Numbered from the stretch's first letter, positions 2,793 to 26,726 are shown. The stretch is 64,000 nucleotides of DNA from a bacterium (GCA_021836035.1 JAKBJL010000002.1:71484-135483); one strand, 5' to 3'. Numbers and translations: made by a program. Notes: a model not told the origin generated them from the sequence alone.

Positions 2793-2794
2793 AT

Positions 2795-5203: not shown

Positions 5204-5251
5204 TAATTAAGATAAATTATAGCTTAAATATTTTTATATCCAAAATATATA

Positions 5252-8190: not shown

Positions 8191-8219
8191 TCGTGTTCAA
8201 GAGATAAGATGAACCCTCA

Positions 8220-8864: not shown

Positions 8865-8866
8865 GT

Positions 8867-9931
8867 TTATTGTAGGTTATCTACTATAGCGGCGACCAAT
8901 TTATTTTGTGAATAGCTTTCTTTCAGTTTTTTTTGACCTTCCATAACTAAATTCTTAATTTCATTTCGATTTCTCTCTAAACTTTTAATGGCGTTAAAGA
9001 TTTGTTTGATATTCCCCTGCTTACATACATAACCGCCGATTCTATTATTAACAACTTCTCCGGCGCAGCCGGTATCGGTCATGACCACCGGTAAACCGGC
9101 GGCAAGAGCCTCAATAGCACTTAAACCCCATCCTTCATAATTAGAAGTCAACAGGAAGATATCGGACTTCGCCAGGGTCTGTTTAACTTCCAGGCGGTTT
9201 TTCTGGCCAACCAAGAGAACCTTTCCTTCCAATCCTTTTTCGCTGATCAGTCCTTCCAGCTTTGGCCGTTCTTCTCCCTCGCCTACTACCACAAACTTCA
9301 TCTTTGGGTAAGTTTTGCACACTCGTTCCGCCACCCCTATTAATAATGGTATATTTTTCTGTTTAATTAGCCTGGCTACCGTTACAATTTGGTTAAAGCG
9401 CTTTACATGCGGTTTGGACCAAAAGTAGTCGAGGTCAACCGGCACGGGGGCTACGAAGGACTTGTGGCCGTATCCGAGCCTCTTGCTAACCACCCTAACC
9501 GAATCCGCAGAGAGCAAGGTAAGCCTTCCCAGCCAATAAAAGAGATAATTCTGCAGGCTTTCGCGGCGAAAATAAGGGGTCTTAAAATAATCGTTATGAA
9601 TTTGGATATTTAACTTAACCCCCCAGCGGAATTTAGCCAAAACCCCTACCAAAGCGCAGATAAAAGGATCTTGGGTAGAAATTATATCCAGACGGGGTAA
9701 AGCGGTTAATATTTTCAGAGAATCCCCAAGATAATGCCAGCGGCTTAGCGAGTTGGTGGGAATAATATGTAAATTCTCCGCATCGATTCGGGAAAATCCC
9801 GCCAGCTTTAGGGAAAAAACGATAAGGTACAACTCTTTAAAATAATTCGCGTATTCCCGGTGTCTTGCCAGCACGTCGGCGTTTTTACCGGTAAATAAGC
9901 TGGTATCGGTACTGATAAAAACTATCTTCAT
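8867..9931 (-). CDS. Glycosyltransferase family 4, compositionally chimeric
   Basis: EGWGLSAIEALAAGLPVVMTDTGCAGEVV is the E-x7-E motif. The last ~60 codons (8867..~9050) are K/N-rich and about 30-37% GC, while the rest of the gene is about 45-63% GC. Confidence 0.8.
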   Translation of the reverse strand: MKIVFISTDTSLFTGKNADVLARHREYANYFKELYLIVFSLKLAGFSRIDAENLHIIPTNSLSRWHYLGDSLKILTALPRLDIISTQDPFICALVGVLAKFRWGVKLNIQIHNDYFKTPYFRRESLQNYLFYWLGRLTLLSADSVRVVSKRLGYGHKSFVAPVPVDLDYFWSKPHVKRFNQIVTVARLIKQKNIPLLIGVAERVCKTYPKMKFVVVGEGEERPKLEGLISEKGLEGKVLLVGQKNRLEVKQTLAKSDIFLLTSNYEGWGLSAIEALAAGLPVVMTDTGCAGEVVNNRIGGYVCKQGNIKQIFNAIKSLERNRNEIKNLVMEGQKKLKESYSQNKLVAAIVDNLQ

Positions 9932-11751
9932 ATTATCCTCGCGTCTATTTTACCCTGATTATCATAGAATAAATCTATCTTTCGCAACCGGCTATCACCA
10001 CCGCATACCGTGTAGCGCTCCCGATATTGCCCGGGAAAGTAATATGCCCTTATTTTGTCGGAAATACCCAAATAGCGCCGCAGGGACAATTCCGAAATTC
10101 CCCTTTCGACTTTTAAGCAACTATCGGGGGAATAAATTGATTTAACTTTGCCATTGATATTTTTCCAGTTTTGTTCCTTTAGCCAGGCTTGGGTGGTTGA
10201 TGAATAAGTTATTGCGGCGCCGAAAGAATCCCAAGAAATTGCATCATCGTCCAAACCGTTGGACAGATAATTGAATCGGAAAACAGTATTCAGCGTATAG
10301 ACAAGAGACAGCAACCAAATGGCGGCAAACAAAGTAATAATTATGGCTTTAGATTTAAATAACAGTAATGAATCGACAAAGATAATCAGTAACGGCAGAG
10401 TAATAAAAGGCAGGTAATAAGTCCTGACCCCGTTAAGAAGAAATATTACTGCCGAACTGAGGATAAAAATAATTATCAGCAACATATTACCCCCCTGTTT
10501 GCGCGTTGTGCCCATAAGCAGAAATATAATCAGTAAAGAAAAAAGGATAACTCCGTATTGATCAGCTAAAATCAGCGATAAGCGGGTAAGATTGCCGGAC
10601 AAATTCAGGGAAGCCTGTGTGGCCCCCGGATGCGCCGGAGTCTTGAATATCCGGGAGAAAAAGATATCGGTGTATCCCGTTGCAAGATATGCGCCGATGT
10701 TATAAACAATTACCGGGGAAAAGACAGCCAGAGCCGGGACAAACACCCGCAGGCCGTTTTTAATCAGCTCGCGCCTCTTAACAAGAACCAACCCCGCGCT
10801 AATAACGGGAAGTATCACCAGAGCGCTTTCTTTAACCAGCATCGCTCCTCCGAAAAATATCCCGGTTAAAAGTAAATATCTGTTTTCCTTGCCGTTGAAA
10901 AAGCGGAGAAAAACATAGATCGTTATTGTTAAAAGAAAGGTTAAAAACATTTCCCGGTGAAAGATGCGGCTCATAAAAATATGGTAATTATTAACCGCCA
11001 GTAAAGCCGTAACCGCAAAGGCTATAGATTTTTTCTTAAGAATCTCTTCCGACAGAAGATAAGCGAGGGGCAGTAACATTATACCGACTAACGCCGGGCC
11101 AAAGCGAAACATCCAGTCGGATAAGGTAGAAAGCCCCCCGGGCGAAAGAATCTGCATCGTAAAGTGCTGGATATATAAAGCCAGCGGCGGATGGCCGGAA
11201 AAAGAGAGAACCAAAGCTTTGCGACCGGCAAATATTCCGTCCACCAGGTTATCAGCCTGGTAACCGAGGTCATACTCATCACCGTTCAAATCGGGGATAT
11301 TTAACGGCAAAAATATCAGCAACGCGGCGATAAATAATGGCGGAATCAGTAATTTCAGATCCGTCAAGGATACTTTCTCTATTTGATCTTTTTTTCCATA
11401 AAGATACAGGGCCACCAGCGTTGTCAGTATATACATAACCAGCAGTATGAATATGTCGCCGGTCAGATGGTAACCGAAGATAGCTTGCGCTGATCTTCCT
11501 TCATAGAGAACGTTTAAAAACCCCGCGGGATAAGTCAAAAGCAAACTTAACCCGAACGAGATCAGTATTCTTTCCATAAGATCCCGGGACTTCGGGAGCA
11601 AAATCAGACTAAGAGGGTAACCACTGAAGAAAAAAACGAAAAGGAAACCGCTCACCCATCTTAAATACACCAGCCGGCTGTCAAACGACAGCAGAAGCGA
11701 TAGCAGCCCGGAGACTAAACCTGCCAGGAGCAGCTTATTTCTTTTCATCAC
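9928..11751 (-). CDS. Polytopic membrane protein, putative GT-C fold glycosyltransferase (ArnT/PMT-like) with C-terminal extracytoplasmic domain
   Basis: The protein is 607 aa with more than 10 hydrophobic helices in the first ~450 aa. An acidic loop NGDEYDLGYQADN follows the first helices, and a soluble C-terminal domain of about 150 aa follows the membrane part. Confidence 0.45.
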   Translation of the reverse strand: MMKRNKLLLAGLVSGLLSLLLSFDSRLVYLRWVSGFLFVFFFSGYPLSLILLPKSRDLMERILISFGLSLLLTYPAGFLNVLYEGRSAQAIFGYHLTGDIFILLVMYILTTLVALYLYGKKDQIEKVSLTDLKLLIPPLFIAALLIFLPLNIPDLNGDEYDLGYQADNLVDGIFAGRKALVLSFSGHPPLALYIQHFTMQILSPGGLSTLSDWMFRFGPALVGIMLLPLAYLLSEEILKKKSIAFAVTALLAVNNYHIFMSRIFHREMFLTFLLTITIYVFLRFFNGKENRYLLLTGIFFGGAMLVKESALVILPVISAGLVLVKRRELIKNGLRVFVPALAVFSPVIVYNIGAYLATGYTDIFFSRIFKTPAHPGATQASLNLSGNLTRLSLILADQYGVILFSLLIIFLLMGTTRKQGGNMLLIIIFILSSAVIFLLNGVRTYYLPFITLPLLIIFVDSLLLFKSKAIIITLFAAIWLLSLVYTLNTVFRFNYLSNGLDDDAISWDSFGAAITYSSTTQAWLKEQNWKNINGKVKSIYSPDSCLKVERGISELSLRRYLGISDKIRAYYFPGQYRERYTVCGGDSRLRKIDLFYDNQGKIDARII

Positions 11752-12910
11752 TTAAATTTCTAAATTCCCGCAAAACCATTACGGCAATCCGACCCCAGTG
11801 ATATTTCGTCCGGGCCAGTTCCGCACCATTATCGCCCAGGGCAAGGCGGAGATTTTTATCCCTTGCCAACTTTTCGATCGCTTTGGCAAGGTCCTTGGGG
11901 TCGTTTGGCAAAACCAGCAGACCGGTTCGCCGGTCGGTTAAAAAATCCGTGATCCCTCCCACGGGCGTGCCGATTACCGGAAGCCCTACCGCCATTGCTT
12001 CGATAAAGGAAGAGCCGAAACCCTCGTGGCGGGACGGCCGGATAAAAACGGAGCTACGTGAAAGCAGGGCCGGGATGTCCTTATTACTTACTCTTCCTAA
12101 AAAAGTTACCCGGTCGGCAATCCGCAACGACCTTGCCATTTTCTGCAGCTGCTTAAAAAGCGGTCCCTCTCCGGCAATGGTTAATTTCCATTTTAGTCCC
12201 GCCGGAAGAAGGGCGCAGGCTTTAATTAAAATATCGATGCCGTTACGGGGAATAAGCGAGGAGGTAGTCACGATCTCCAGTAGCTTATCTTCACTATTTC
12301 TTACGGGACGAAATTTCTCGATATCTACCCCGTTGGGAATAATCACGATATTTCTTGCTCCCATCCTTTGGGTAATTTTAGCCGAATAACTGCTAACCGC
12401 CGCTACCGTGTCTGCTTTTCTAAAGGACCAGGCGATCAGGGGGGTAATTAAATCAGCAAGTTCCGCGCGCAATTTCATCGGTAGCCAACCCCGAAGAACC
12501 AGCTCTTCCCGGGCCAGCAGCGGGTTCTGGGAAGTTATATATAGCGGAATTCCGGTAAACTTTTTAACCAAAGCTCCGACCTGCGCCTGGGGGAACTCCT
12601 GTTTTGCCCAGACAAGGTCATACTTTTTTAGTTTCGCAAGAACTATGGATAGGGGGGCGGCAAAAAGGATAAACATGATACCGTAGAGATTGGGAATATG
12701 GGGGTAAATTACCCGGTAATAATTTATGTGGGAAAGGCCGGGAAATTCTTTTTTGATCGTGATCTCCGGCCCGGTAACCACCGTCACCGCTTCCAGGTCC
12801 GGAGCTACCCTTTTTAATACTTCCACAAAATGCATTTCCGCCCCACCCAATTTTTCGGGTGTGATATCAGCGGCGATAGCAAGAATCCTCATATAATATC
12901 CAACTACCAA
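11735..12910 (-). CDS. Glycosyltransferase family 4
   Basis: ...RHEGFGSSFIEAMAVGLPVIGTPVGGITDFL... is the E-x7-E motif, and the N-terminal ...GGAEMHF... matches the GT4 N-domain. The likely start is the Met at 12892 (MRILAIAAD...). Confidence 0.8.
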   Translation of the reverse strand: MVVGYYMRILAIAADITPEKLGGAEMHFVEVLKRVAPDLEAVTVVTGPEITIKKEFPGLSHINYYRVIYPHIPNLYGIMFILFAAPLSIVLAKLKKYDLVWAKQEFPQAQVGALVKKFTGIPLYITSQNPLLAREELVLRGWLPMKLRAELADLITPLIAWSFRKADTVAAVSSYSAKITQRMGARNIVIIPNGVDIEKFRPVRNSEDKLLEIVTTSSLIPRNGIDILIKACALLPAGLKWKLTIAGEGPLFKQLQKMARSLRIADRVTFLGRVSNKDIPALLSRSSVFIRPSRHEGFGSSFIEAMAVGLPVIGTPVGGITDFLTDRRTGLLVLPNDPKDLAKAIEKLARDKNLRLALGDNGAELARTKYHWGRIAVMVLREFRNLSDEKK

Positions 12911-12913
12911 TAA

Positions 12914-14281
12914 CTAATTTCTAATCAGGGTCAACGAGCCGTTCGGCAGATAAGTAACGATCTCATCATACGCCGATAATTTTTCGTCTGATGAAATTAC
13001 CCCGCCTTTAATTACCGAAATATTACGGTCGGAGTAGAAGGTTGTGTGCCAGCCTTCAAATTCCATATTCGGTTTTTTAAGTAACAGTAAAACCCTGTCG
13101 GAAATAGCACTGTTTTCCTTAATATACCGCCCGATAACAACCCCATCTTTAAAACGGTCCCCGTTAAGCAGCGTTGCCGTGTATTTAGAGCTTTGAATTA
13201 CCGACAGGGCAATAACCGCAACGGCAAAAAATGCTCCCGCCGGACGGCTTTTTAAAAGCATGCGGCTGATAAAAAACCCCGCGGTAACCGAGATGAACGG
13301 TAATAAATAATAAATTAAATAGTCATGGCGGTTAGCGGCTTCTTCAAAAAGCAGCGGGTGTAAAGACCCGAAAAGCAACAGCATTAAGGGGAATTGATAG
13401 GTTCTTTTGGCAAAAAACAGAAGCAGGCCGGCCAACGAGATCAAAACAAGCGGCTTAGTGAAATACAATAAAATATAGGTTGTTTCCAATTTTAAAAACG
13501 CGAGAAAATCCGGACGGCTGGAGCGGAGGGCGAAAGCGGAGTTAAATCCCCCGCCGGTAAAGGATCCGCTAAGAATAAAGGTTTGGGAAACATGCGCCAG
13601 AAATAACCCTAGCGGCACAATTATCAACCAGACTAACTTTTTCTCAAATTTACGATGAAGCAGGAAGTGGTAAACCAGAAGAGAAACCGGCGTATAGTAA
13701 CCCGGCCAACCGGAAAGGCAACCTAGAATTATTCCGATAATTAACCAGACAAAATTCCGCCTGCTGTTACCTTCGTTCCAGGCGAGATATCTCCAGAGCG
13801 AAAAGAGAAAGAAGAACAAAACCGGTATCTCGTGGACGGCCATTTTCCCGAAGTAAAGGTAAAGCGGCGTAATTATCCAGAAAACGGCAGCAAGAGCGGC
13901 AACGGCGGGGCTATAAAGCTTTTTAACTATTACATAGAGCAATAATACCGTCAAAACGGACAAGATGATGGGTACTAACCGGGTAGATATTTCCGTAATT
14001 CCGAAAAAATAATAGGAAAGAGTCAATAAGGTGATCAACAAACCCGGATGGTGGGTGTGATAGGAAAATTCCGAGGGCGTTACAATTCCGGAGTTTACTA
14101 CCTGCCCGAAACGGGTGACAACCACCCCATAGCGTAAAGTATTTCTGGCAATATTGCCGAAAAAGGCGTTATTGAAGTCGTGATGTCCCCAAAAGGGCTT
14201 GTCCGCCCTATAAAGTAAAGCTATAAAAGCTAAAATAAGGGTTAATAAGAGTATTAAATTATGACGACACAATATCCTCAT
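12914..14281 (-). CDS. Polytopic membrane protein, putative GT-C glycosyltransferase
   Basis: The protein is 455 aa and multi-helical. The first loop, ...YRADKPFWGHHDFNNAFFGNIARN..., carries D/H residues, and the overall architecture resembles ArnT/PMT-type transferases. Confidence 0.4.
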   Translation of the reverse strand: MRILCRHNLILLLTLILAFIALLYRADKPFWGHHDFNNAFFGNIARNTLRYGVVVTRFGQVVNSGIVTPSEFSYHTHHPGLLITLLTLSYYFFGITEISTRLVPIILSVLTVLLLYVIVKKLYSPAVAALAAVFWIITPLYLYFGKMAVHEIPVLFFFLFSLWRYLAWNEGNSRRNFVWLIIGIILGCLSGWPGYYTPVSLLVYHFLLHRKFEKKLVWLIIVPLGLFLAHVSQTFILSGSFTGGGFNSAFALRSSRPDFLAFLKLETTYILLYFTKPLVLISLAGLLLFFAKRTYQFPLMLLLFGSLHPLLFEEAANRHDYLIYYLLPFISVTAGFFISRMLLKSRPAGAFFAVAVIALSVIQSSKYTATLLNGDRFKDGVVIGRYIKENSAISDRVLLLLKKPNMEFEGWHTTFYSDRNISVIKGGVISSDEKLSAYDEIVTYLPNGSLTLIRN

Positions 14282-15398
14282 ATACTTTAAATATTTGCAT
14301 ACTGATATGCTTCCAGGTATAGTATTTTTCTACAAGTTTATAACCTTCCTCCCCCATTTCCCCGCCTATCGGCGATTCTAATATCTTTTCCATTTTAGCA
14401 GCTAAATCTTGGGGGTTACCGGGATCGGTTAAATATCCCGTTTTCCCGTCCTTAATCAACAGACCGACATCTCCGATATCGCTGGCAATTACGGGAAGCC
14501 GGCAGGCCATAGCATCGACAAGTGTCAAGGGAAATCCTTCCGCTGATAATGAAGGCAGAACAAAAGCGTGCGAAGACTTGTATTCCCGGATAAGATCTTC
14601 CCCGTAAAGAGCCGGTTTGATATCTACCTTCTTCTCCAGTTTGGTAGCTGCCACAAGGTCTTTTATCTTAGCTTTTTCCGGACCTTCACCTACCAGAGTT
14701 AAACGAAATCGGGGAAAACGGGAGGCAATATTTTGGGCCGCTTTAATAAGAACCGGGAGACCTTTAACCTCAACAAAACGACCTACCCAGAGAAAGCGAA
14801 AAGCCTTTTTATCCCGGTGCGCCGATAGACTTTTGAATTTTTGCAAATCCACCCCGTTGCCAATGATAAAGGTTTTGCGGGTAGCCACTTTACCGTTTAA
14901 GGATTTTCCCGCGACCGTAATCAAAGCATCATAACGATAAATGTTTACGATAAGATTGCTGAGTATGGCCGGAAGCCCGCTGCGGTTAATTAAACCCGCA
15001 CCCAAACCGCTGCTTCCTAAGCCGTGAAGCGTATAAACGGTCTTTTTGCGCTTCAGCAATCCCAGCAGGGGCAAAAATATTGTGGTCGAATAACTGTGGC
15101 TGTGATAAATATCATAACCGGCAAATAGCGTATAACGGAAAGCGTAAAGGATAAATAAAAGGCGTCCGAAAAACCGGGGAAAAATAAACCGGGGGCCGAG
15201 GCGAAGTACTTTCAGCCTGCCGTTTTCATAAACTTCCCTGCCGGGGTAAATCTTACCAGTTTTATCGGTAAGGTTCGGGACTACGATATCCACCAGGCAT
15301 CCATAATCTTTTACCAGACGCTGTGATACTTCCCAAATATGCGCTTGCCCCCCGCCCCACCAGGGCATCCAGGCGTCAGTCAACATGCAAATCTTCAT
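14259..15398 (-). CDS. Glycosyltransferase family 4
   Basis: The N-terminal MKICMLTDAWMPWWGGGQAHIWEV is a GT4 N-domain motif, and ...SAEGFPLTLVDAMACRLPVIASDIGD... is the E-x7-E motif. Confidence 0.8.
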   Translation of the reverse strand: MKICMLTDAWMPWWGGGQAHIWEVSQRLVKDYGCLVDIVVPNLTDKTGKIYPGREVYENGRLKVLRLGPRFIFPRFFGRLLFILYAFRYTLFAGYDIYHSHSYSTTIFLPLLGLLKRKKTVYTLHGLGSSGLGAGLINRSGLPAILSNLIVNIYRYDALITVAGKSLNGKVATRKTFIIGNGVDLQKFKSLSAHRDKKAFRFLWVGRFVEVKGLPVLIKAAQNIASRFPRFRLTLVGEGPEKAKIKDLVAATKLEKKVDIKPALYGEDLIREYKSSHAFVLPSLSAEGFPLTLVDAMACRLPVIASDIGDVGLLIKDGKTGYLTDPGNPQDLAAKMEKILESPIGGEMGEEGYKLVEKYYTWKHISMQIFKVYEDIVSS

Positions 15399-15425
15399 AA
15401 GCAGCTCAAAGCCAATAGCAAATAG

Positions 15426-16571
15426 CTAACGACTGAATAACGATTTATATACCCTCTCCGTTTCCCGGGCAACTTTCCCCCAGGTATGATTCCGGGCAAA
15501 TTTTAAACCGCTTTGGCTCAGTTTTTGATAGAGATCGTTATCTTTTAATAATTTTTCCAGCTTTTCTGCCAGATCTTCCGGATCTCCCAATTTAAATATT
15601 AACCCTCCGTGACTGGCTGTTTCTATTTCCCTGTTTACGTTAATATCGCTGTTCACAAACGGTATCCCCTGCGACATGGCTTCCAGAGAGACGATCCCAA
15701 AACCTTCGACCGCTGAGGGCAAGGAAAAAATATCCGCCCGGGATATTTCCTTTAGGACTTCCGGGTGGGGTAAATTACCTAAAAATTTGACCCGCTGAGA
15801 AACACCTAATTTTTCGGCTAAATCTTCCATTACCTTCCGCCGCTCCCCTTCGCCGATAATTCGGTAACGAAGATCATATCCGCGTTCCACCAGAATAGCC
15901 AAAGCCCGGATAACCGTGTCGGTTTTTTTATAATTAACCAGTCTTTGTACGGAAATAATAGTGGCCGGATTTCCTCTTGCCTTTTTTGCCTCCTTGGCGG
16001 TTTGCTTAACACCGGGATAAATAACTTCTACTTTTCCCTCCGGCAAGCCAAGCTTTTTAAGTTTATCGTAAGTTTGGTAACTTAAAGCAATATATTTATC
16101 GGCCGGCAAATATACCATTGATTTTTCGATTAAATTAGCCAGGTAACCCTTAATTCTTCCTGCCGCTTTCTGCCAGGTGATAAGCGCTACCACATCCGGC
16201 ACCCAATAAACCAGCTTTTTACCCCTGAGTCTGGCCGCCAGATATGCCGCCGCATAGACATTTCCGTTATTGCCGTCAACCAATTCATAATCCAAGGTCA
16301 GAGCTTTAAAGACTGCGGCAATAATAAAAACAAACCGGTTCAGCAGTTGCCCATAGCGGGTATAGGGGCGATTTAATCCCACCCTAAATATTTCTAAACC
16401 ATGCCAGTTGTCATACGCCGTTGTCCCCGGCAGACGGCAGGTAATCACTTTTATGCCGTGGGTCCGCAATAACAATTCTTGGGCCAGATAATAAGTACGG
16501 GCTTCCGCGCCGCCGGTAACCTTGCCGCTGTCTTCTGTGGGAAAAAATTCCGAAATAAAAAGGAGTTTCAC
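15426..16571 (-). CDS. Glycosyltransferase family 4
   Basis: ...FPTEDSGKVTGGAEARTYYLAQEL... at the N-terminus and ...SAVEGFGIVSLEAMSQGIPFVNSDI... at the C-terminus. Confidence 0.8.
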   Translation of the reverse strand: MKLLFISEFFPTEDSGKVTGGAEARTYYLAQELLLRTHGIKVITCRLPGTTAYDNWHGLEIFRVGLNRPYTRYGQLLNRFVFIIAAVFKALTLDYELVDGNNGNVYAAAYLAARLRGKKLVYWVPDVVALITWQKAAGRIKGYLANLIEKSMVYLPADKYIALSYQTYDKLKKLGLPEGKVEVIYPGVKQTAKEAKKARGNPATIISVQRLVNYKKTDTVIRALAILVERGYDLRYRIIGEGERRKVMEDLAEKLGVSQRVKFLGNLPHPEVLKEISRADIFSLPSAVEGFGIVSLEAMSQGIPFVNSDINVNREIETASHGGLIFKLGDPEDLAEKLEKLLKDNDLYQKLSQSGLKFARNHTWGKVARETERVYKSLFSR

Positions 16572-16921
16572 TTTGGCTTGTTTGCTTTGTTGCCGTTTTC
16601 GAGGGCAATTTTCCGAACTAGCTCCGTAATCTGGTGAGAAAGGTTTTCCATGAGAACATAAGCCCGGAAAATTAAATAGAAAAGGACAATAATGGAAACA
16701 TAAATAACCAGATCCGCTCCCCGCCCGATACCGAAAAGCCGCGCCAACCGCGTTGTTTCTCCCGGAAAAAGAACACCGAAGATAGCCGAGACAAAAACTA
16801 CCGACCAGAAAATAAACTCCTTATATTTAATTTGCCCGCCCCGGAAGCGCAGAAATACCCGGCTTAAGGCAAACAAAAGAAAAAGCAGCAGAATGAGCTG
16901 AATTATGATGATACTGCTCAT
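16568..16921 (-). CDS. Small 3-4 TM membrane protein, DUF2304-like
   Basis: The protein is 117 aa with hydrophobic segments MSSIIIIQLILLLFLLFAL, IFWSVVFVSAIFGVLF and LVIYVSIIVLFYLIF. Its size, topology and position in an operon with a Dpm1-type GT2 match what I recall of the DUF2304 family. Confidence 0.4.
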   Translation of the reverse strand: MSSIIIIQLILLLFLLFALSRVFLRFRGGQIKYKEFIFWSVVFVSAIFGVLFPGETTRLARLFGIGRGADLVIYVSIIVLFYLIFRAYVLMENLSHQITELVRKIALENGNKANKPK

Positions 16922-17679
16922 GTTTTTTGCGCGATAACAAAATTAGTCTGCCCTAATAACCGCCCCAAAAAACGATCCAGAAACTTATCCAACTTATCTA
17001 ATTGCCCGGGATAACGGTTAATTATTTTTTCCCGGACAAAGGGAAAAATCCGGCCGATATAAGCGGGCAGGACACCGCTTCTTCCCGCCTTAAGGATATT
17101 ATAACCGCTGTTGGCGATAAGCGATACAACTTCTCCCAGGCCCTGTCTCTCCAAACCCCGATGGGCACCCGGAAGCCCGAAAATACGATTTAGCAATTCC
17201 GCGGGCGCATATTTATTCGGGAAATTATAAATAAAAAGCAGGCCCCCCGTCTTTAAGACCTTTCGTATTTTTAAAAGGGCCAGACGCCGGTCCTGAAATA
17301 CCCGATAAGCGTCGCCTTTACCTAGATGTTCTAAAACGCCGAACATCACCACGGCATGAAAACAATCTTTGGGAAAAGGCAGAAGACCTCCGTCATAAGT
17401 CTTAAAATACGGCCCCGCCTTTCTCCAAATGGGGTGCGGGGCTACCTCTAGGCCCACTGTCTCCATTCCCAACTCCCGTAATATCAAAACATTCTGCCCC
17501 TCGCCGCAGCCGAAATCTAAAACCCGCCAATCCTCCCCGGGAAAATGCCTCTCCAGTGTTCGTCTGACCTCCCTGGCACTGCGGACATACCTGGATAAAT
17601 ACAGGAAGTTATGTACTGTTTCCCATTCCGAAGCGGTCATCTTTCGGGCGATACTTTGTATCAACTTCCCGTCGGTCAT
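16918..17679 (-). CDS. Class I SAM-dependent methyltransferase
   Basis: Motif I VLDFGCGEGQN and ...FHAVVMFGVLEHL...LKTGGLLFI are present. The start is assigned to the Met of MTDGKL at 17679; the ORF Met at 17727 would overlap the upstream GT2 by 47 nt. Confidence 0.65.
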   Translation of the reverse strand: MTDGKLIQSIARKMTASEWETVHNFLYLSRYVRSAREVRRTLERHFPGEDWRVLDFGCGEGQNVLILRELGMETVGLEVAPHPIWRKAGPYFKTYDGGLLPFPKDCFHAVVMFGVLEHLGKGDAYRVFQDRRLALLKIRKVLKTGGLLFIYNFPNKYAPAELLNRIFGLPGAHRGLERQGLGEVVSLIANSGYNILKAGRSGVLPAYIGRIFPFVREKIINRYPGQLDKLDKFLDRFLGRLLGQTNFVIAQKT

Positions 17680-17680
17680 A

Positions 17681-18370
17681 TCAACGAAATATCCGCAGCA
17701 GCATTTTAAAAGCGACCCGTACGGCATTCAGATTACCGAATCCCTCCTGACCTTTCTGCCGGCTATAATCGGTATAAATCGCCGGGATAGGAATTTCGCT
17801 AAACCGCAAGCCGTTCCTTTTCACTTCCCGGAAAAATTCACTGCTGACTTCCATCCGGTCCGTTTTGATATTAATTAAGGTTAAGGCTTTTTTATTAAAA
17901 GCCCGGAGTCCCGACTGGGAATCGGTCGTCCAAACACCATAGAGCAGATAAGTCAAAATATTGCTTAACCAATTTAAAATCTCCCGGTCTCTGGGCATCC
18001 GGCCGTCTTCGATAAGCCGGCTGCCGATAACCATATCGCTTTGCCCGGAGATTAAAGGCGAAATCAATCTTTTGATATCCGCGGCCCGGTGCTGGCCGTC
18101 GGCATCGAAAGTCACGGCAATATCGAAACCGTTTTTCCGGGCATATTCTAAACCGGAACCGAGAGCCGCGCCTAGTCCCCGGTTAATAATATGGGTTAAC
18201 ACGGGTTTGCCTTTTCTCCGGGCGATGTCCGCGGTTTGATCTCCCGAGCCGTCGTTAATCACTACTATATCCCGGAAACCGTTGGCCGCCAGATCGTCAA
18301 GAACCGCGCCGATTTTTTCCTGCTCATTGAAGGCCGGAACAATAACCAGTATTTTCATCAGCTTACCCAA
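17681..18370 (-). CDS. GT2 polyprenyl-phosphate sugar synthase (Dpm1/GtrB/ArnC-like), soluble form
   Basis: ILVIVPAFNEQEKIGAVLDDL...VVINDGSGDQTADIA...DIAVTFDADGQHRAADI... matches the Dpm1 pattern. The protein is 229 aa with no C-terminal transmembrane helices. Confidence 0.8.
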   Translation of the reverse strand: MGKLMKILVIVPAFNEQEKIGAVLDDLAANGFRDIVVINDGSGDQTADIARRKGKPVLTHIINRGLGAALGSGLEYARKNGFDIAVTFDADGQHRAADIKRLISPLISGQSDMVIGSRLIEDGRMPRDREILNWLSNILTYLLYGVWTTDSQSGLRAFNKKALTLINIKTDRMEVSSEFFREVKRNGLRFSEIPIPAIYTDYSRQKGQEGFGNLNAVRVAFKMLLRIFR

Positions 18371-19473
18371 TACCCCCTGACAAAAAACGTCGTCAATACC
18401 ACTTCCAGGAGCGCGAACAGTATCGCTAACCCGATCTTAAACGGGCGATTTTTTATTAGGGCCAGGCCGATAAAAACGGGAAAGACAGTCAACAGATAGC
18501 GCGGCAGGGAAGAGAGAGTACCGGAAAATACGGGTAAAACGAGAGCCGGCCAGGAGTAAACCAAATAAGATAAGGGCACCTTCCGCCGTACGGTCAGCCA
18601 GGTTAGGATTCCTACGCCGAAAAGAAAAGCGGTAAACTCCAGAACGGCAACCCAAAAATCATAGTGGGTAACACTGGCGGTCAGAAATATCCTCAGATAG
18701 CGGTAAAGGACCTGCGGCGGCGTTACCAAACCGGAAAGGGTATTCGCCCGGGCATTCTTAAACGCTCCCTGGTTAAATAAAAACAACAAGGGGTTGCCGA
18801 ACTGGCGCCAGAGGTAAAACATATAACTAAGAACTCCCCCGGCTGCGATTATTCTCCACCGGTTTAGGGGTTTAAATATTGCCGTCGGGGCGAGAAACGC
18901 CCCCACCAGCCTCACGCCCCCGGCTAATAACCCGGCTATCCCACCAGCGATACCCGGCAAAAAGAAAGCCAGCAGTAACAGCAGTAAAAATAGCGCTTCC
19001 GTATAAACCGCACCGAAAAAAAACGAAGTCGGAAAAGCAAAAAGAAAAATAACCGACCAGAAGGCTACGTTTTTATTCAGGTCCCGGCTGACCAATTTAT
19101 AAAGGAGGATAGCCGCAAGCAATGCGGAGACATTAGCAATCAGCAATCCCGCCAGAAATAAATTACCGGTAAGAAAGGAGACAAGCTTTATTAAAAGGGG
19201 ATAAACCGGGAAAAATACCTGCTCCCCGTTAATCAGACCGGCATAGCCGTGACGGGCTACCGTCAGATAATGAACCCCGTCAAAATTACCCCACTGCCAA
19301 AGCCACTGGGGATAACCGGAAATGATCAGGGACTCGTTAATCAGGGGAAAACTGGCCTTAAATTCCAGAAGACGGAGAGCGATTATTCCCCATAAAAAAA
19401 GCAGCCCGCGCCAGAGAAGGAAAGCAAGTATTACCGGCTTAAGCTCCGTTATTGATCTTTTCATAGACCGCAA
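18358..19473 (-). CDS. GT-C membrane mannosyltransferase, PIG-V/Gpi18-like
   Basis: ...WGNFDGVHYLTVARHGYAGLINGEQVFFPVYPLL... resembles the PIG-V family signature (WD..Y..IA..GY...AFFPLYP). The protein is 371 aa with about 8 helices. Confidence 0.55.
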   Translation of the reverse strand: MRSMKRSITELKPVILAFLLWRGLLFLWGIIALRLLEFKASFPLINESLIISGYPQWLWQWGNFDGVHYLTVARHGYAGLINGEQVFFPVYPLLIKLVSFLTGNLFLAGLLIANVSALLAAILLYKLVSRDLNKNVAFWSVIFLFAFPTSFFFGAVYTEALFLLLLLLAFFLPGIAGGIAGLLAGGVRLVGAFLAPTAIFKPLNRWRIIAAGGVLSYMFYLWRQFGNPLLFLFNQGAFKNARANTLSGLVTPPQVLYRYLRIFLTASVTHYDFWVAVLEFTAFLFGVGILTWLTVRRKVPLSYLVYSWPALVLPVFSGTLSSLPRYLLTVFPVFIGLALIKNRPFKIGLAILFALLEVVLTTFFVRGYWVS

Positions 19474-20500
19474 GTGTCCCGAGCGCCGTTTTTTCCCAAC
19501 TGAACTGTCCGGCTTGGGAGAGACAATTTCGGCTTAGGCTTTGATAGCCTTCGGGTGATAGGCTTAAAACCTGGACGACTTTGGCACATAAATCTTCAGG
19601 GCTTTTGATATCGGCATAAACACCGGCTTCTCCGGCAACCTCCGGCAGGCTGCTGTTCTTTCCACAGACCACCGGACAACCGCAGGCCATCGCCTCAACT
19701 ACCGGCAAACCGAATCCTTCATACAACGACGGTTGGACATAAACCTTTGCCAGGTTATAAAAAACCGCCAGGTCTTCCGGCGGGACAAAACCGGGTGAGA
19801 CGACTTTTTCCGCAATTCCCAAAGCCTCCGCCTCCCTTTTTATTTCCCCCGCCTCCGGAATTTCCAGAGAATTAAAAGACCTTCCCGCCAAAACCAGATT
19901 AACCCCCCGGTATTTTTTTAGACCTATCAGTTTGGCGAAAGCCCGTAACAGACCGGCCAGGTTTTTATTGTAATTGATGTCTCCGACATAAAGAATAAAC
20001 TCCTCAGGCAACTGATATTTATCCTTAACCGCGAACAACCTATCTCCGTCTTTAAGCGGTCTAAAATCCGCACCCGGAGCTTCATAAGTAACAAAGATTT
20101 TATTTTTGGGGAAACCAACCAGGCGGATGATATCGTTTTTAGATGAACGGGAAACGGTAATAAGAGCGTCGGAAAAACGCAGGGAAAATTTTTGGATTTG
20201 CCATTTTAATTTTCCCTTAAATCCCCGGGGGAATCCGGCGGGAAACAAAAGCGGCGTCAGGTCATGAACCGTAACCACCGAATTTTTCCGGATCATAAAC
20301 GGCAGGGTCAAAAAGAAAGTGTCGTAATAGGGAAAATGGACAATATCAAACTTTTTATACGGCGAGGACAGGTAAGAAAAATCGACCAGCTCGATATCGG
20401 CGTTAAGTTTTACTAAGGCTTCAAACAGTCTTTCCGTATAAAAGCCTACTCCCCTGACGGTATTGGCAAGATTCGGCGGCCGGACCAAAGCGATATTCAT
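19439..20500 (-). CDS. Glycosyltransferase family 4
   Basis: ...PSLYEGFGLPVVEAMACGCPVVCGKNSSLPEVAG... is the E-x7-E motif. Confidence 0.8.
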   Translation of the reverse strand: MNIALVRPPNLANTVRGVGFYTERLFEALVKLNADIELVDFSYLSSPYKKFDIVHFPYYDTFFLTLPFMIRKNSVVTVHDLTPLLFPAGFPRGFKGKLKWQIQKFSLRFSDALITVSRSSKNDIIRLVGFPKNKIFVTYEAPGADFRPLKDGDRLFAVKDKYQLPEEFILYVGDINYNKNLAGLLRAFAKLIGLKKYRGVNLVLAGRSFNSLEIPEAGEIKREAEALGIAEKVVSPGFVPPEDLAVFYNLAKVYVQPSLYEGFGLPVVEAMACGCPVVCGKNSSLPEVAGEAGVYADIKSPEDLCAKVVQVLSLSPEGYQSLSRNCLSQAGQFSWEKTALGTLAVYEKINNGA

Positions 20501-21240
20501 AATTTCTCCCGGGATTTAAAATAAGCGATCGGAAAATTCAAAGACGAAAAAAGCGCCCAGATAAAACCCGGAAAACCGTCCAGGAATCCCAGATGGCGGA
20601 AATATATAGTAAAAAAACCCTGCCGGCTGTCAAACAAAGGTCTAACCAGCATATTGGCTAAAAAACCGCCGCTTACCGTTTCCGCCCATAAATCCGTATA
20701 GCGGTTAAAGTGTTCCAGATAGCGGTAGAAGGTTTCATTGGCGTAGTGCAGCAAATCGTGTTTCAAATATCCGGTTTTTCCCGTAACTTCAGCCTGTTCG
20801 TGAACGCTTTTGCAGGGCAGGCGCCCCTTACCGCGGCGGTATAACCTTAAGGTATAGTCGGGATATGCTCCGCCTTTCTTTAAGAACTTTCCCAGAAAAA
20901 AATTACTCCGGGGCAGCCAAAAGCCGTTTTCCGGCGGATCCGCCGCTAAAACGCTGTCGATCTCTTTCTTTAAATCGGGGGTGACCACTTCGTCCGCGTC
21001 CAGCTGCAAAATCCAATCGCCGCGGGCCTGTTCAATGGCCTTTTGCTTATTGAGGTGAAAGATCGGCGGATTATCGGTAACCGTAACCTTGGCACCGTAT
21101 TTTTCGGCAATGGCCACCGTCTTATCCGTTGAGGTACCGTCAACAACGATAATCTCCCCGGCCCAGCCCTTTACCGCCGCGAGGCATCTGGCCAAGTTTT
21201 GTTCCTCGTTGAACGTTGCTAAGACTACCGAAAGCCTCAT
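20497..21240 (-). CDS. Glycosyltransferase family 2, WaaE/KdtX-like (paralog 1 of 3)
   Basis: RLSVVLATFNEEQNLARCLAAVKGWAGEIIVVDGTSTDKT...WILQLDADEVVT... is shared with the GT2s at 41008..41811 and 44385..45281. Confidence 0.7.
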   Translation of the reverse strand: MRLSVVLATFNEEQNLARCLAAVKGWAGEIIVVDGTSTDKTVAIAEKYGAKVTVTDNPPIFHLNKQKAIEQARGDWILQLDADEVVTPDLKKEIDSVLAADPPENGFWLPRSNFFLGKFLKKGGAYPDYTLRLYRRGKGRLPCKSVHEQAEVTGKTGYLKHDLLHYANETFYRYLEHFNRYTDLWAETVSGGFLANMLVRPLFDSRQGFFTIYFRHLGFLDGFPGFIWALFSSLNFPIAYFKSREKL

Positions 21241-22919
21241 ACTATGAATATTACCAAGGTTATGGCCAAAGCGCCAAGCGAAATAAGGTCGGAAAATTTT
21301 CTCACCGGAGTTTCTCCGAATTGGGCAGTCACATCGTGGGTGCCGGCGGGGACGCTAACGAGCATGGTACCGCTGTAATCGGTTCCGTCCGGAGATAGGG
21401 AACTGCCGCTGACGCTTAAACCGGAATCGAGCGGCACAGCTTTGCCGTCCAGATTTACCCGCCAGCCGGGAAAATAAAGCGTGTTTAAACGTAGGGAGGA
21501 GGCGGTGGCTACCGTAATTGTATATTCCTGAAAATGAGAGGTTATTTTGTCAACGATGATTTTCCCCTGTCCCCCGATAAGCTGAGCCCGCTGGGCAACC
21601 GGCGGAAAGGACATTGCCAAACGATCTTTAGGTGTAAATTCACCAAGCTGGGTTCCCGACTCAGCAAAGGAGAATAAAAAGTCATCACGGTAATTTAGCA
21701 CCTCGTTAATGCGCGTATGGTTACGGTTGGCGATAATTACGGCCATAACCAGCAAAACTGCGCCGCCCAGCTGCAGAATCCTTCCGGGTATTTGGCGTAC
21801 CAATAAAGCTCCGAGAATGGCCGAGGAAAAAACCGTTACCCCCAATAGCCTCCAGGGATAATCGATAGTGGATAAGGCGTTCACGTTTTTCCAGAGAAAA
21901 ACGACCGGAGGGATATCGGTCATCAAAATGACGGTTAAACCAAGGCAAAACAAAGCAAAAATAAATAAATATTTATCACCTCCGGTATATATTTTCTTTT
22001 TTAAAATTAAAGCGACGGGTACAACTATGACGGCTAAAAATACCGTAAGAATTTGTCCTAGTCCGATCTGAAAACTCATCATGTCATTTGCCGTCCCGGG
22101 AAAGGAAAAACCATAGCCCCAGGGTGAGCGGAAAAACTGCCAGAAGGCCACCAAGTGCTGCGCGGAGTAATTCATTACCTGATCAAAACGGACATCGGAC
22201 CGCTCCAGGACATCCGGAATATAAATAAAGGCTGCCAGGCAAAACCCCAATAAGGAAAATAGCGCATAATGAAAAATGCCGCTCCACTTCCTTGTCCGGT
22301 ACAAAAGCAACGCGGCATATAAAGATCCCAGCGGTAAAAAGATGAAAGCGACCAGATTATGGGCCAGCATAAGCAATCCGGTAGCGAAAGCGCCGACAGC
22401 TATCCACTTGCGATTTCCCGTCCCGAAGACTTCATCAATGGCTAAAAATACCGGCGGAATAAAAGCGTAGGCAATGCTTTCGGCGTAAGCGGCACGCACA
22501 AAAATCATTAAAAAGCGATAGGGCGCCCAGAGGTAAAATACCGCCCCGACCAGGGCCGGGATTTTTCCCAATTTCTTCTCCAGCCAGAGATAAAAAGTAA
22601 TTCCGGATAAAAGATAGGCGCCGCCCAGAACCGCTTTAAAACTATCAGTAACCGTGAGCCCGAGATAATGCAGTAAAGCTCCCAGAAAGTAGGGTAAAGG
22701 ATAGATATAGGAAAATATTGGTGAACCCAGAAATCCGTTCAAATTCTGCGCCCAACGGACGGGTAACTGACCGTCTTTTAACGCCAGGAAAAAGTTGGCG
22801 ATGCGGACCGTATGGTGCAAGCCGTCATGGCTGGTGTAAAAACCCGGTGTCAGCAAAGCTTTAATTCCCAATAGTCCCAGGAAAAATAGCAGGAAAATAA
22901 TTAAGGTTCTGTTTCTCAT
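21237..22919 (-). CDS. Polytopic membrane protein, short YfhO-related family (PTPS-related-like); putative GT-C
   Basis: The N-terminal ...FYTSHDGLHHTVRIANFFLALKDGQLPVRW... and C-terminal ...YFPGWRVNLDGKAV...HDVTAQFGETPVRKFSDLISLGALAITL are shared with 46704..48443 and 48440..49984. Confidence 0.5.
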   Translation of the reverse strand: MRNRTLIIFLLFFLGLLGIKALLTPGFYTSHDGLHHTVRIANFFLALKDGQLPVRWAQNLNGFLGSPIFSYIYPLPYFLGALLHYLGLTVTDSFKAVLGGAYLLSGITFYLWLEKKLGKIPALVGAVFYLWAPYRFLMIFVRAAYAESIAYAFIPPVFLAIDEVFGTGNRKWIAVGAFATGLLMLAHNLVAFIFLPLGSLYAALLLYRTRKWSGIFHYALFSLLGFCLAAFIYIPDVLERSDVRFDQVMNYSAQHLVAFWQFFRSPWGYGFSFPGTANDMMSFQIGLGQILTVFLAVIVVPVALILKKKIYTGGDKYLFIFALFCLGLTVILMTDIPPVVFLWKNVNALSTIDYPWRLLGVTVFSSAILGALLVRQIPGRILQLGGAVLLVMAVIIANRNHTRINEVLNYRDDFLFSFAESGTQLGEFTPKDRLAMSFPPVAQRAQLIGGQGKIIVDKITSHFQEYTITVATASSLRLNTLYFPGWRVNLDGKAVPLDSGLSVSGSSLSPDGTDYSGTMLVSVPAGTHDVTAQFGETPVRKFSDLISLGALAITLVIFIV

Positions 22920-24370
22920 TCTAAAAATTGCCTGGCATCAAACATCAGAGAATCTCCCAAGAGATGGCGATTATGGTCCGTATCCTCAAAGTATACTCCC
23001 CGGAAATTTTCCCCGAAATAGAGACGGAACATATCCGTCCCGCCGGTAGCGTAGGCCAATTCCCGGGAGGGATGTAATTTATTCCCGGTTAAAGCACAAA
23101 CCGGATTATTGTTATTGCGAAAATAAATATTAGGGTAAAAAACCGGCGACGAACCGCTCAAAACTAAAAGCCGCATGACCCTTTCGGCAGCAACCGCTCT
23201 TTTCACCGACCAATGGTTGGAGATATTGAAATTCAATGCGGAAAAACTTAATAACAGATAGATAAAACAGGCAAGAACGATCATTTGCCGCGAAAGATTC
23301 CGGACCACTACTGCCAGTATCAGGGCTAACCCGCAAAGCGGCAGAGTCAGGCTATAGGCAAACTTGTGAAAGGGATAAAAAGCCACGGGCAAAAGGAAAA
23401 CGACAAAAAAAACCACCCCGAAAATAAGTATGTTCACGGGTTCTTCTCTTATCCGGCGCCATCTGTCGCGGCTGTTTTCCCACATCCGGGCTAAACCTAA
23501 GGAAAGCAACCCGAAGAACCCGGCAAACATTCCTAAAACCCTGTTACCCCATAAACCAAATTCGGTAAAAATCGCCGGGTTAATTAGCAGGGGAAGCTTA
23601 AACAATTTAATGTTGACATAGGCTTCCGGCAACCCCAACCCCCAAAGTCCGTACCAGAAATAATTATTGAGAATTTGCTTCGGATTAAAGTTAAAAGCAT
23701 AAGCTTCCCCGGAAGCAAAACCGAAAAATTTAAGGCGCGCAATTACATATAAAGCAACTACCATCAAAGACGCGCCCAAAAGCGGCCACTTGATCTTTTT
23801 CTGCCATAACCAGTCTGCAAAAAATAAAACCGGCGGGATGACGACCGCCGTTTCTTTAGAGGCTAACGCCAACAGAAAACCAGCTAAAAATAACCAACTG
23901 CCGCGCAAATAAAAAATGACCGTTAAAAGTCCGAAAGTCGCTAAAGCCAATTCCTGTATCTGGGAGAGGAAAAAGAGGCGGTAAAAATGGGATCCCGAAA
24001 AGGCGTAAAAAAAGGATGTTAAAACAGCCAAGCCGTCGTTCCGGCAGAGAAGCTTTACTAACCAGAAAACCAGCAGGATATTAACTAGGAAGAAACCAAA
24101 AGCGATTAGATGATACCCCAGGGGTTGGAGACCGAAGAGATTTTGACCGAGGCGCCAAAACAGCTGCGTCGTCAACGGACGATAAAATTTAAAATCGAGG
24201 ACGGGGGCCTTAAAAATATTAAAAGCGTCACCCAGGCTTTGGCTGTTAGCCAGAAGCATATTAAAAAAATCGTCCTGGAAGAAAAAATTTCCTAATGCCT
24301 GCCGGTAGAATAAGGCGGCAACCGGAAGGAGCAAAACCAGCAGATATTGCGGTTTGGCAAAGGTTTTCAT
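22916..24370 (-). CDS. Polytopic membrane protein, putative GT-C glycosyltransferase
   Basis: The protein is 484 aa and multi-helical. The first extracytoplasmic loop, ...GNFFFQDDFFNMLLANSQSLGDAFN..., carries a DD motif. Confidence 0.4.
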   Translation of the reverse strand: MKTFAKPQYLLVLLLPVAALFYRQALGNFFFQDDFFNMLLANSQSLGDAFNIFKAPVLDFKFYRPLTTQLFWRLGQNLFGLQPLGYHLIAFGFFLVNILLVFWLVKLLCRNDGLAVLTSFFYAFSGSHFYRLFFLSQIQELALATFGLLTVIFYLRGSWLFLAGFLLALASKETAVVIPPVLFFADWLWQKKIKWPLLGASLMVVALYVIARLKFFGFASGEAYAFNFNPKQILNNYFWYGLWGLGLPEAYVNIKLFKLPLLINPAIFTEFGLWGNRVLGMFAGFFGLLSLGLARMWENSRDRWRRIREEPVNILIFGVVFFVVFLLPVAFYPFHKFAYSLTLPLCGLALILAVVVRNLSRQMIVLACFIYLLLSFSALNFNISNHWSVKRAVAAERVMRLLVLSGSSPVFYPNIYFRNNNNPVCALTGNKLHPSRELAYATGGTDMFRLYFGENFRGVYFEDTDHNRHLLGDSLMFDARQFLE

Positions 24371-25140
24371 GAACCTGAGGAAAATATCGGACTATGATAT
24401 ATCCCCCATCGATGGAGAAGATATAAAAACACTTCCCAGCAGCTTTCAAGACCGAACTTCAAACCGCGCCAGCCGCTGATGGAAGATTGCTGGTCGTGAT
24501 AGCGGGTCGGGATAGGGATTTCCCCGATCGCTAGCCCCGCGGCGACCGCCGAAATCGTAAATTGCTGATCGAAAACAAAATCGTTGGAAAAACGCTGAAA
24601 AGGAACTTTCTCCAGGCACTTGCGGCTGTAGGCGCGTAACCCGCTCATATATTCAGACAAATTTTCGCCGAGGATAATATTGGCAAAAAGCGTAAACAGG
24701 CGGTTAAAAAAATATTTTTGCTTCGGCATCCCGCCGGCCAGCGCCATCCCGCGGTTTTTTATCCGGCTGCCGAACATCATATCGTAATCCCCGTTTAAAA
24801 TCGGGTCGACCAAACCCTTGATTTTCGATCCGTCATACTGGTAGTCGGGATGAAGCATCACTACGACGTCCGGATTCCTTTTTAACGCTTCCCAATAACA
24901 GGTTTTTTGATTACCGCCGTACCCCAGGTTATGAGGATGCCTAAAAACCGTTAAGCCCAGTTTTTGCGCCGTCTCCGCCGTTTTATCCTTGCTTCCGTCA
25001 TCAACCAGAATTATTTCGCTTACTAACCCCGCCGGAATTTCCCGAAAAGTGCTCTCGACCGTCCGCTCGGCATAGTAAGCCGGCATAACGACGACAATTT
25101 TCGGTTTCGTTTTTGCCATCTTTTTACTCCATTCTAGCAA
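24367..25140 (-). CDS. GT2 polyprenyl-phosphate sugar synthase (Dpm1/Ppm1-like)
   Basis: KIVVVMPAYYAERTV...IILVDDGSKDKTAETA...VVVMLHPDYQYDGSKI... matches the Dpm1 pattern. It sits immediately downstream of a PMT_2-type GT-C gene. Confidence 0.8.
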   Translation of the reverse strand: MLEWSKKMAKTKPKIVVVMPAYYAERTVESTFREIPAGLVSEIILVDDGSKDKTAETAQKLGLTVFRHPHNLGYGGNQKTCYWEALKRNPDVVVMLHPDYQYDGSKIKGLVDPILNGDYDMMFGSRIKNRGMALAGGMPKQKYFFNRLFTLFANIILGENLSEYMSGLRAYSRKCLEKVPFQRFSNDFVFDQQFTISAVAAGLAIGEIPIPTRYHDQQSSISGWRGLKFGLESCWEVFLYLLHRWGIYHSPIFSSGS

Positions 25141-26725: not shown

Positions 26726-26726
26726 C

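Follow-up and report, generated by a model that had tools for sequence, protein, structure and literature searches.

A putative GacI/GacJ-type synthase pair and a GT-C glycosyltransferase in a Microgenomates glycosylation island

Introduction

Genomes of the Candidate Phyla Radiation (CPR) encode many orphan glycosyltransferases of the GT-C type, and the locus studied here raises the question of which lipid-linked sugar such an enzyme may use as donor. It lies in the genome of an uncultured Microgenomates bacterium, a member of the CPR (GCA_021836035.1, JAKBJL010000002.1:71484-135483), of which we analyzed a stretch of 64,000 nucleotides (nt), hereafter the window. Within it, positions 14259..21240 hold eight tightly coupled open reading frames (ORFs), all on the minus strand, which include genes for a GT-C enzyme, a glycosyltransferase of family 2 (GT2), a methyltransferase, a DUF2304 protein, and two glycosyltransferases of family 4 (GT4). 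An earlier reading of the sequence (the original prediction) saw here a module in which a PIG-V-like GT-C is served by a soluble Dpm1-like GT2, with the DUF2304 protein, taken to have no known function, as a small flippase or scaffold. We put at about 70% the probability that the block is a branch for building a glycan on a lipid monophosphate, by analogy with the Wps and Gac systems, inside a glycosylation island of ~58 kb. The genes of the original prediction, their coupling, the DUF2304 assignment, and the pairing of a synthase and a DUF2304 protein with a GT-C enzyme found support. The match of the window GT-C to PIG-V, the flippase role, and the absence of a known function for DUF2304 did not.

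The DUF2304 protein and its partner synthase

The 117-residue protein encoded at 16568..16921 is confirmed by profile comparison as a DUF2304 member of the GacJ/WpsB/EpaJ/Rv3632 family. It matches PF10066 over its full length (E-value of 1.7e-26; 93 bits, where the cut-off is 25.5; positions 1-104 of the 106 in the profile). The predicted small protein with several transmembrane (TM) segments was also recovered, with hydrophobic segments at residues 1-19, 36-54, and 62-89. Its AlphaFold2 model, with a predicted local distance difference test score (pLDDT) of 86.8, has helices at 2-27, 33-51, 53-62, and 68-113. This arrangement of three TM segments and a long C-terminal helix is the four-helix plan of the WpsB model (PMC10821137). 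In the modelled WpsA/WpsB complex, WpsB combines a helical hairpin with a short helix and a long fourth one, whose C-terminal part touches WpsA (PMC10821137); there, residues 93-115 of WpsB pack against residues 58-87 of WpsA. Likeness to the studied members was assessed on Rv3632 peptides taken from PMC6487176, and is thus at the peptide level. Window residues 44-63 and the Rv3632 peptide 41-60 form an ungapped alignment in which 8 of 20 positions are identical, including the family-invariant P53, and the score of this alignment was reached by none of 2000 shuffles. The second Rv3632 peptide (81-100) gave no significant alignment at the expected place in the window protein. Across 30 DUF2304 relatives, the loop motif GIGRGAD and 14 further positions are invariant. 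A tblastn search of the protein against plasmids for annotated relatives returned zero matches.

The notion that DUF2304 lacks a known function proved to be a false lead, since GacJ, WpsB, and Rv3632 bind or stimulate their GT2 (10.1101/180810, PMC10821137, PMC3485146). In Streptococcus pyogenes, the DUF2304 protein GacJ co-purifies with GacI, a GT2 that synthesizes N-acetylglucosamine (GlcNAc)-P-undecaprenol, and drops its apparent Km for undecaprenyl phosphate from 18.7 to 1.1 uM (10.1101/180810). The same work reports that Rv3632 of Mycobacterium tuberculosis stimulates PpgS, and that natural GacJ-GacI fusions occur in some bacteria (10.1101/180810). In the lactococcal system, WpsB raises the activity of WpsA, and fusing the two as WpsB-WpsA gives an active protein (Guerin et al., PMC10821137). 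GacJ, WpsB, EpaJ, and Rv3632 are DUF2304 proteins, and they bind and stimulate polyprenyl-phosphate N-acetylhexosamine (HexNAc) synthases of the GacI/WpsA/PpgS type.

The GT2 of the block (17681..18358, 225 residues) matches PF00535 (8.6e-20) and has no hydrophobic segment, the maximum Kyte-Doolittle mean over 19 residues being 1.19. Its top NCBIfam models are PpgS (2.2e-46, full length), AglJ, and the dolichyl-phosphate hexose transferase, and its best solved relatives are the Pyrococcus Dol-P-Man synthase (DPMS, 5mlz) and ArnC. The residues D85-x-D87-x-Q89 are invariant in 30 paired sequences and resemble the D96-x-D98 and Gln100 of WpsA (PMC10821137). Its sequence places the enzyme in the GacI/WpsA/PpgS group, as a candidate polyprenyl-phosphate glycosyl synthase, and "soluble Dpm1-like GT2" was a fair label for it.

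Conservation of the neighbourhood

To study how the block is conserved, we scanned one genome per species for DUF2304 loci, of which 456 were confirmed, and analyzed the best 80 of these 456 with our own script based on ORFs and hidden Markov models. In 73 of 78 testable loci, the gene immediately upstream of DUF2304 encodes a homolog of the window GT2; this homolog is within 1 kb in two others and absent in three. This bears out the expectation that DUF2304 proteins habitually neighbour Dpm1-like GT2s. A GT4 gene follows the DUF2304 gene directly in 44 of 74 loci. The corresponding gene in the window is GT4a (15426..16571, 381 residues, Glycos_transf_1 at 7.7e-41), which is followed by GT4b (14259..15398, 379 residues, Glycos_transf_1 at 1.2e-40), and homologs of the latter come after GT4a in many loci. 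The family of the window GT-C is less regular, being present at most 5 kb upstream of the DUF2304 gene in 30 of 67 loci.

The reverse test used 77 distinct GT-C loci from metagenomes. Among the 42 having at least 4 kb of downstream sequence, 21 carry the GT2-DUF2304 pair downstream of the GT-C. A homolog of GT4up, the gene that precedes the GT-C in the window (20500 to 19439, 353 residues, Glycos_transf_1 at 1.5e-32), immediately precedes the GT-C in 39 of 61 testable loci. Loci with both the GT-C and the GT2-DUF2304 pair invariably have them in the same orientation, separated by 0.6-3.5 kb, in relatives down to ~35% identity. The genes are thus neighbours elsewhere too. The conserved core is the GT2-DUF2304 pair, often together with a GT4, and the GT-C is a frequent, not an obligate, partner. 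The position ascribed to the DUF2304 protein, between a lipid-sugar synthase and its GT-C user, was too simple a picture: in other loci the GT2 and DUF2304 genes are immediate neighbours, with the GT-C upstream of the two.

Some of the loci deserve a comment of their own. Two candidate GT2-DUF2304 fusions (L059, L082) were rejected, as the length of each "DUF" ORF comes from a stop-free stretch upstream, which is read in a different frame from the distinct GT2 ORF that it overlaps. In a Woesearchaeota bin (L061, 1819..5336), the DUF2304 gene has no GT2 neighbour and is divergent from the gene of a 991-residue protein with the motif WWDFGHW, which resembles an AglB/STT3 oligosaccharyltransferase. 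In L069, the DUF2304 gene is preceded by an epimerase gene and followed by one for a 730-residue double GT4. Finally, many contigs with a Microgenomates-type module (L009-L088) go under titles such as "uncultured Gammaproteobacteria", "Pseudomonadales", or "Methanosarcinales" in third-party annotation (TPA) assemblies, and these titles are probably placeholders or wrong taxonomy.

The GT-C enzyme and its relation to PIG-V

The GT-C gene most likely spans 18358..19464 and encodes 368 residues; the longest ORF starts at 19473 and gives 371. The AlphaFold2 model of the protein (pLDDT of 93.2) predicts a polytopic GT-C fold with an acidic residue in the first extracytoplasmic loop, the features by which the GT-C superfamily is recognized. 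The original prediction had called the enzyme PIG-V/Gpi18-like and stressed the interest of a bacterial homolog. PIG-V/Gpi18 (GT76) is the eukaryotic alpha-1,6-mannosyltransferase II of glycosylphosphatidylinositol (GPI) synthesis, and to our knowledge bacteria do not make GPI. Neither the 371- nor the 368-residue version of the window protein matches PF04188 (PIG-V), even at E <= 1, and the only profile signal is a sub-threshold match to PMT_2 (21 bits for a cut-off of 26.1).

In PIG-V, the first luminal loop bears a D/ExE signature with an aromatic residue after it (PMC6056205). The window family has instead F61-D62-G63-V64-H65-Y66; all 44 sequences keep D62 and 43 of the 44 keep V64, which leaves no second acidic residue. 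The window enzyme is also shorter than human PIG-V (368 vs 493 residues). What the two have in common is the GT-C fold and a loop outside the membrane after the first TM segment, with an invariant Asp preceding an aromatic residue.

The relatives of the window protein tell more about the family. At least 644 are detectable, nearly all of them in CPR. Among 44 aligned relatives, PF04188 matches 28, PMT_2 12, and GT87 five. When ten were scanned individually, nine passed the PF04188 gathering score of 22.4 (24.5-42.6 bits), with matches that span only profile positions ~38-206 of 443, in the N-terminal third of the model. Some members of the family pass PMT_2 or GT87 equally. A profile search of the family against the sequences of the PDB gave nothing meaningful. 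Hundreds of these CPR proteins are already in the databases, some under the names "mannosyltransferase family protein" or "Gpi18-like" (NCBI, JGI). From these comparisons, the window GT-C is a genuine small member of a poorly studied CPR-wide family, distantly akin to PIG-V, PMT_2, and GT87, for which PIG-V is the nearest Pfam model; the window protein itself failed both tests for PIG-V, the profile and the motif, and is not a clear ortholog. The claim of a notable homolog of a eukaryotic enzyme was hence overstated, as the link to PF04188 is partial and exists at the level of the family only.

Organization of the gene block

All the ORFs of the original prediction were found on the minus strand at their expected places, in the same direction, including the two GT4 genes downstream of the DUF2304 gene. 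We checked starts and junctions by reading the junction sequences and by an independent gene call on another assembly of the same genome (L001). Both support the reassigned start of the methyltransferase gene (16918..17679, 253 residues, Methyltransf_11 at 1.7e-11) at ATG 17679, one base past the TGA of the GT2; the longest ORF is 16918..17727. The overlaps of 4 nt on both sides of the DUF2304 gene were equally read at the junctions, as ATGA with the methyltransferase gene and GTGA with GT4a. The overlap of 13 nt between the GT-C and GT2 genes needs revision. It follows from the longest GT2 ORF (17681..18370), and the more likely start is ATG 18358, which leaves a 1-nt overlap with the GT-C stop (TGATG). 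The preferred GT-C start, ATG 19464, lies 26 nt inside the upstream GT4up.

The block begins with GT2up (20497..21240, 247 residues, PF00535 at 6.5e-20), a conserved companion upstream of the GT4-GT-C pair, homologs of which precede the GT-C in most of the related loci. By the NCBIfam models, GT2up is not a synthase of the polyprenyl-phosphate type. A scan of 11-26 kb for promoters and terminators found nothing above chance, the block having no intergenic terminator; there were zero Rfam matches and no tRNA genes were found. The block reads as a single operon segment. Plus-strand ORFs over it (e.g., 17429..17878) were taken as shadows of the genes on the minus strand, which each have homologs.

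A relocated methyltransferase

The methyltransferase gene sits in the window between the GT2 and DUF2304 genes, a place where none of ~160 other loci has a homolog. Its subfamily is rare. Among 1.84 billion proteins, it has eight representatives (clustered at 50% identity) at E <= 1e-30, after which the score drops from 149 to 91 bits, and a word-indexed search found three relatives. The three relatives that we looked up are all among homologs of the GT4 genes of the module, and two of them have GT2-DUF2304 upstream on the same contig. Gene orders are GT2-DUF2304-GT4a-GT4b-methyltransferase in L169, GT-C-epimerase-GT2-DUF2304-GT4a-epimerase-GT4b-Trm112-like-methyltransferase-GT4 in L171, GT4b-methyltransferase in L170, and GT4-methyltransferase-GT4-GT4 in L172. 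The usual place of these relatives is after the second GT4, with GT4b directly before in L169 and L170. Because its relatives stand among homologs of the module GT4 genes, the window enzyme is part of the module, moved to a new place. Its best solved relative is, weakly (1.2e-4), a glucose O-methyltransferase.

Trm112 proteins are activator partners of methyltransferases. In L171, a gene for a 53-residue Trm112p-like protein (5593..5754) lies directly upstream of the methyltransferase relative; none was called beside the window methyltransferase. The GT2/DUF2304 junction is also interrupted in other lineages, by different sugar-modifying genes whose identities were judged from sequence inspection alone. 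These are NAD-dependent epimerase-like genes in L093 (together with a gene for a 453-residue membrane protein, 5104..7418), L098 (5265..6278), and L106 (8061..9056), and an acyltransferase-like membrane protein in L077 (4111..4974).

Comparison with characterized systems

Three known systems are close enough for a detailed comparison. The first comprises GacI/GacJ/GacK/GacL, which make the GlcNAc side chain of the S. pyogenes Group A carbohydrate, and EpaI/EpaJ of Enterococcus faecalis. In the Gac system, flipping is ascribed as a proposal to the Wzx protein GacK, and transfer of the sugar falls to the GT-C GacL (10.1101/180810). As in these systems, the window encodes together a TM-less GT2 and a three-TM DUF2304 protein (~113-117 residues), the GT-C uses, or would use, a lipid-monophosphate sugar, and a Wzm/Wzt-like ABC polysaccharide pathway occurs in the same region. 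In contrast to Gac, the window has GT4 genes instead of a Wzx gene after DUF2304, a methyltransferase gene between the pair, a CPR host, and a GT-C of 368 residues where GacL is described as a 12-13-TM protein.

The second system, WpsA/WpsB/WpsC...WpsG/WpsJ, builds the Lactococcus pellicle polysaccharide on GlcNAc-P-C55, which WpsA/WpsB make and the cytoplasmic glycosyltransferase WpsC then extends (PMC10821137). The window order GT2-DUF2304-GT is that of wpsA-wpsB-wpsC: a synthase-activator pair comes directly before cytoplasmic glycosyltransferases, and the four-helix plan of the small protein is common to both. The window differs in that its elongating enzymes are GT4s, an S-adenosylmethionine (SAM)-dependent class I methyltransferase joins the set, there is no adjacent flippase, and evidence for polymerase or chain-length genes is missing in the window. 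The third is the mycobacterial triad of PpgS (Rv3631), Rv3632, and the GT-C Rv3779 (PMC3485146), acting in the decoration of arabinogalactan with galactosamine (GalN) in M. tuberculosis. Of the NCBIfam models, PpgS fits the window GT2 best, one Rv3632 peptide aligns to the window DUF2304 protein, and here too the user would be a GT-C; the score is far below the PpgS equivalog cut-off, and the envelope context differs.

In kind the block is therefore ordinary, a CPR version of the known GacI/GacJ-type multi-component glycosylation systems, and its local peculiarities are the relocated rare methyltransferase and the uncharacterised GT-C family. It extends a pair so far studied in Firmicutes and mycobacteria to CPR bacteria, where it is a standard part of huge glycosylation islands in Microgenomates and other CPR. 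The surface glycans of CPR bacteria probably matter for their episymbiotic life style.

A proposed pathway and its alternatives

Family memberships, fold, gene coupling, and synteny together lead us to infer a concrete donor pathway for this orphan GT-C. The long cytoplasmic C-terminal helix of the DUF2304 protein would dock the TM-less GT2 onto the membrane and raise its efficiency towards polyprenyl phosphate, so that together they would form a polyprenyl-monophosphate sugar on the cytoplasmic side. The precedents of GacI, WpsA, and PpgS make a HexNAc the probable sugar. Most likely, GT4a and GT4b would then extend this lipid-sugar while it is still in the cytoplasm, where it would also be methylated, along the lines of the WpsA/B/C scheme of Lactococcus. 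We prefer elaboration on the lipid because most relatives have a GT4 gene coupled to the DUF2304 gene on its downstream side, and because relatives of the rare methyltransferase keep company with the two GT4 genes. The product would be flipped by a separate flippase and transferred to its acceptor outside the membrane by a GT-C, for which the adjacent 368-residue enzyme is the best candidate, with D62 as putative catalytic base in the first outside loop. The stop/start overlaps through the whole block support this pathway.

A number of observations weigh against it. The window GT2 scores 158 bits against PpgS, for which the equivalog cut-off is 370; it is not a PpgS ortholog, and specificity for GalNAc does not follow from this match. 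The methyltransferase gene splits in the window a pair that is directly adjacent in nearly all other loci. Half of the GT-C loci have no GT2-DUF2304 nearby, and the GT-C is more tightly tied to GT4up. No flippase gene adjoins the module. The GT4s could build a different chain. Lastly, with ~17 further GT-C-like genes and one or more additional lipid-sugar synthases in the island, the pairing of donor and user is ambiguous.

One alternative, possible if rather doubtful, is that the block works like the Gac system, with a polyprenyl-P-monosaccharide flipped unchanged and the GT-C adding side-chain residues to a polymer built elsewhere. This polymer could be exported by the Wzm/Wzt pair (1533..3613), and the GT4s and the methyltransferase would act on its main chain. 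There are precedents in GacI/J/K/L and PpgS/Rv3632/Rv3779 (10.1101/180810, PMC3485146), and the Wzm/Wzt pair with its Wzt_C domain recalls GacD/E in the polyrhamnose pathway; several methyltransferases are moreover scattered over the island. However, such a division of labour sits poorly with the wide conservation and translational coupling of the GT2-DUF2304-GT4 triad, even in lineages without the window GT-C, and with a rare methyltransferase subfamily that tracks the GT4 pair. Unlike gacK in the Gac system, no flippase gene follows the DUF2304 gene. The GT-C may also have nothing to do with the product of the GT2 and DUF2304. It would then be a mannosyl- or other hexosyltransferase fed by a different synthase and working with GT2up-GT4up, its adjacency to the pair being a by-product of a dense island. 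We regard this too as rather unlikely. It would account for the pair being downstream in only 21 of 42 GT-C loci, with one or two genes inserted between in some, and for the tighter link implied by the GT4up-GT-C overlap; other synthase candidates exist (43459..44388, 24367..25140, 36045..36746). It would leave aside the co-orientation and the short spacing kept over large divergence, and the ~50% co-occurrence within 5 kb, which looks higher than for unrelated genes when judged without a null.

The pathway proposed above assigns the DUF2304 protein to the synthase. The view that it is instead a small flippase, analogous to GtrA/GtcA, which moves the lipid-linked sugar to the GT-C, seems very improbable. 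The protein is indeed small and polytopic, it is encoded beside the synthase, and the module lacks an adjacent dedicated flippase gene. Yet the characterised members act on the synthase, as the complex, the effect on Km, and the active fusions show, and those systems use separate Wzx-type flippases. Three TM segments and one cytoplasmic helix would be a thin scaffold for lipid translocation, the natural N-terminal fusions to a GT2 suit an anchor better than a transporter, and a MOP flippase is present in the island. The other half of the original suggestion, a scaffold, comes near the known action of DUF2304 proteins. There remains a more speculative form of the pathway, to which we give little credence, in which the GT-C family is the prokaryotic sister of eukaryotic PIG-V/GT76 and moves a methyl-capped oligosaccharide built on polyprenyl monophosphate by the GT2/DUF2304 pair, two GT4s, and a dedicated methyltransferase. 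If it were true, the methyltransferase would act on a lipid-linked intermediate, within a CPR-specific surface-glycan pathway.

The glycosylation island

The closest relatives of the block proteins come from metagenome bins of Microgenomates and other Patescibacteria (CPR). From 6188 to 63895 (~58 kb), every ORF of at least 150 residues with a Pfam assignment is on the minus strand. The island encodes ~17 GT-C-like polytopic proteins, about ten GT2, about nine GT4, and five methyltransferases. The GT-C-like genes form an array (9928..62581, minus strand) of PMT_2-type proteins, four or five of the YfhO type (37710..39953, 49981..56833), and three PTPS_related ones, in which paralogous lipid-donor glycosyltransferases are packed with unusual density.

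A MOP/Wzx-type flippase is encoded at 45278..46729 on the minus strand (Polysacc_synt_3 at 6.6e-42, NCBIfam MOP flippase at 6.9e-24), 26 kb upstream of the module. Judging from its family, it is only a candidate flippase for the lipid-linked product, and its membership of the module is conjectural. It lies one gene away from a second candidate lipid-sugar synthase, of the GtrB/ArnC/PgfS type (43459..44388, minus strand, NCBIfam PgfS at 2.4e-76, full length). Two short AglJ-like GT2s (24367..25140 and 36045..36746, minus strand) are further synthase candidates. No priming enzyme of the WecA or WbaP type was seen among the ORFs of at least 150 residues in the island.

The Wzm/Wzt ABC exporter, whose Wzt_C domain is of a carbohydrate-binding kind, belongs to a part of the window with low G+C content. 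The G+C content steps at ~10 kb from 0.37-0.39 (1..10000) to 0.45-0.50 (10000..64000). Besides the exporter, the low-G+C part has GT4s, a plus-strand epimerase, an FkbM methyltransferase, and another methyltransferase, and it may be a separately acquired polysaccharide cassette of the ABC-transporter type. In a 60%-identical island of Microgenomates GW2011_GWA1_48_10 (L002), a gene for a 215-residue PaaX_M protein with a weak Cas2 match (1479..2126, minus strand) interrupts the glycosylation array in the opposite orientation; the window has no such gene. Five large ORFs of the window (412-574 residues, minus strand) have no Pfam match at E <= 0.001, at 22916..24370, 26727..27965, 29465..30832, 41811..43535, and 62594..63895. 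One of them, of 484 residues, has a conserved counterpart of 485 residues at the same position in related islands.

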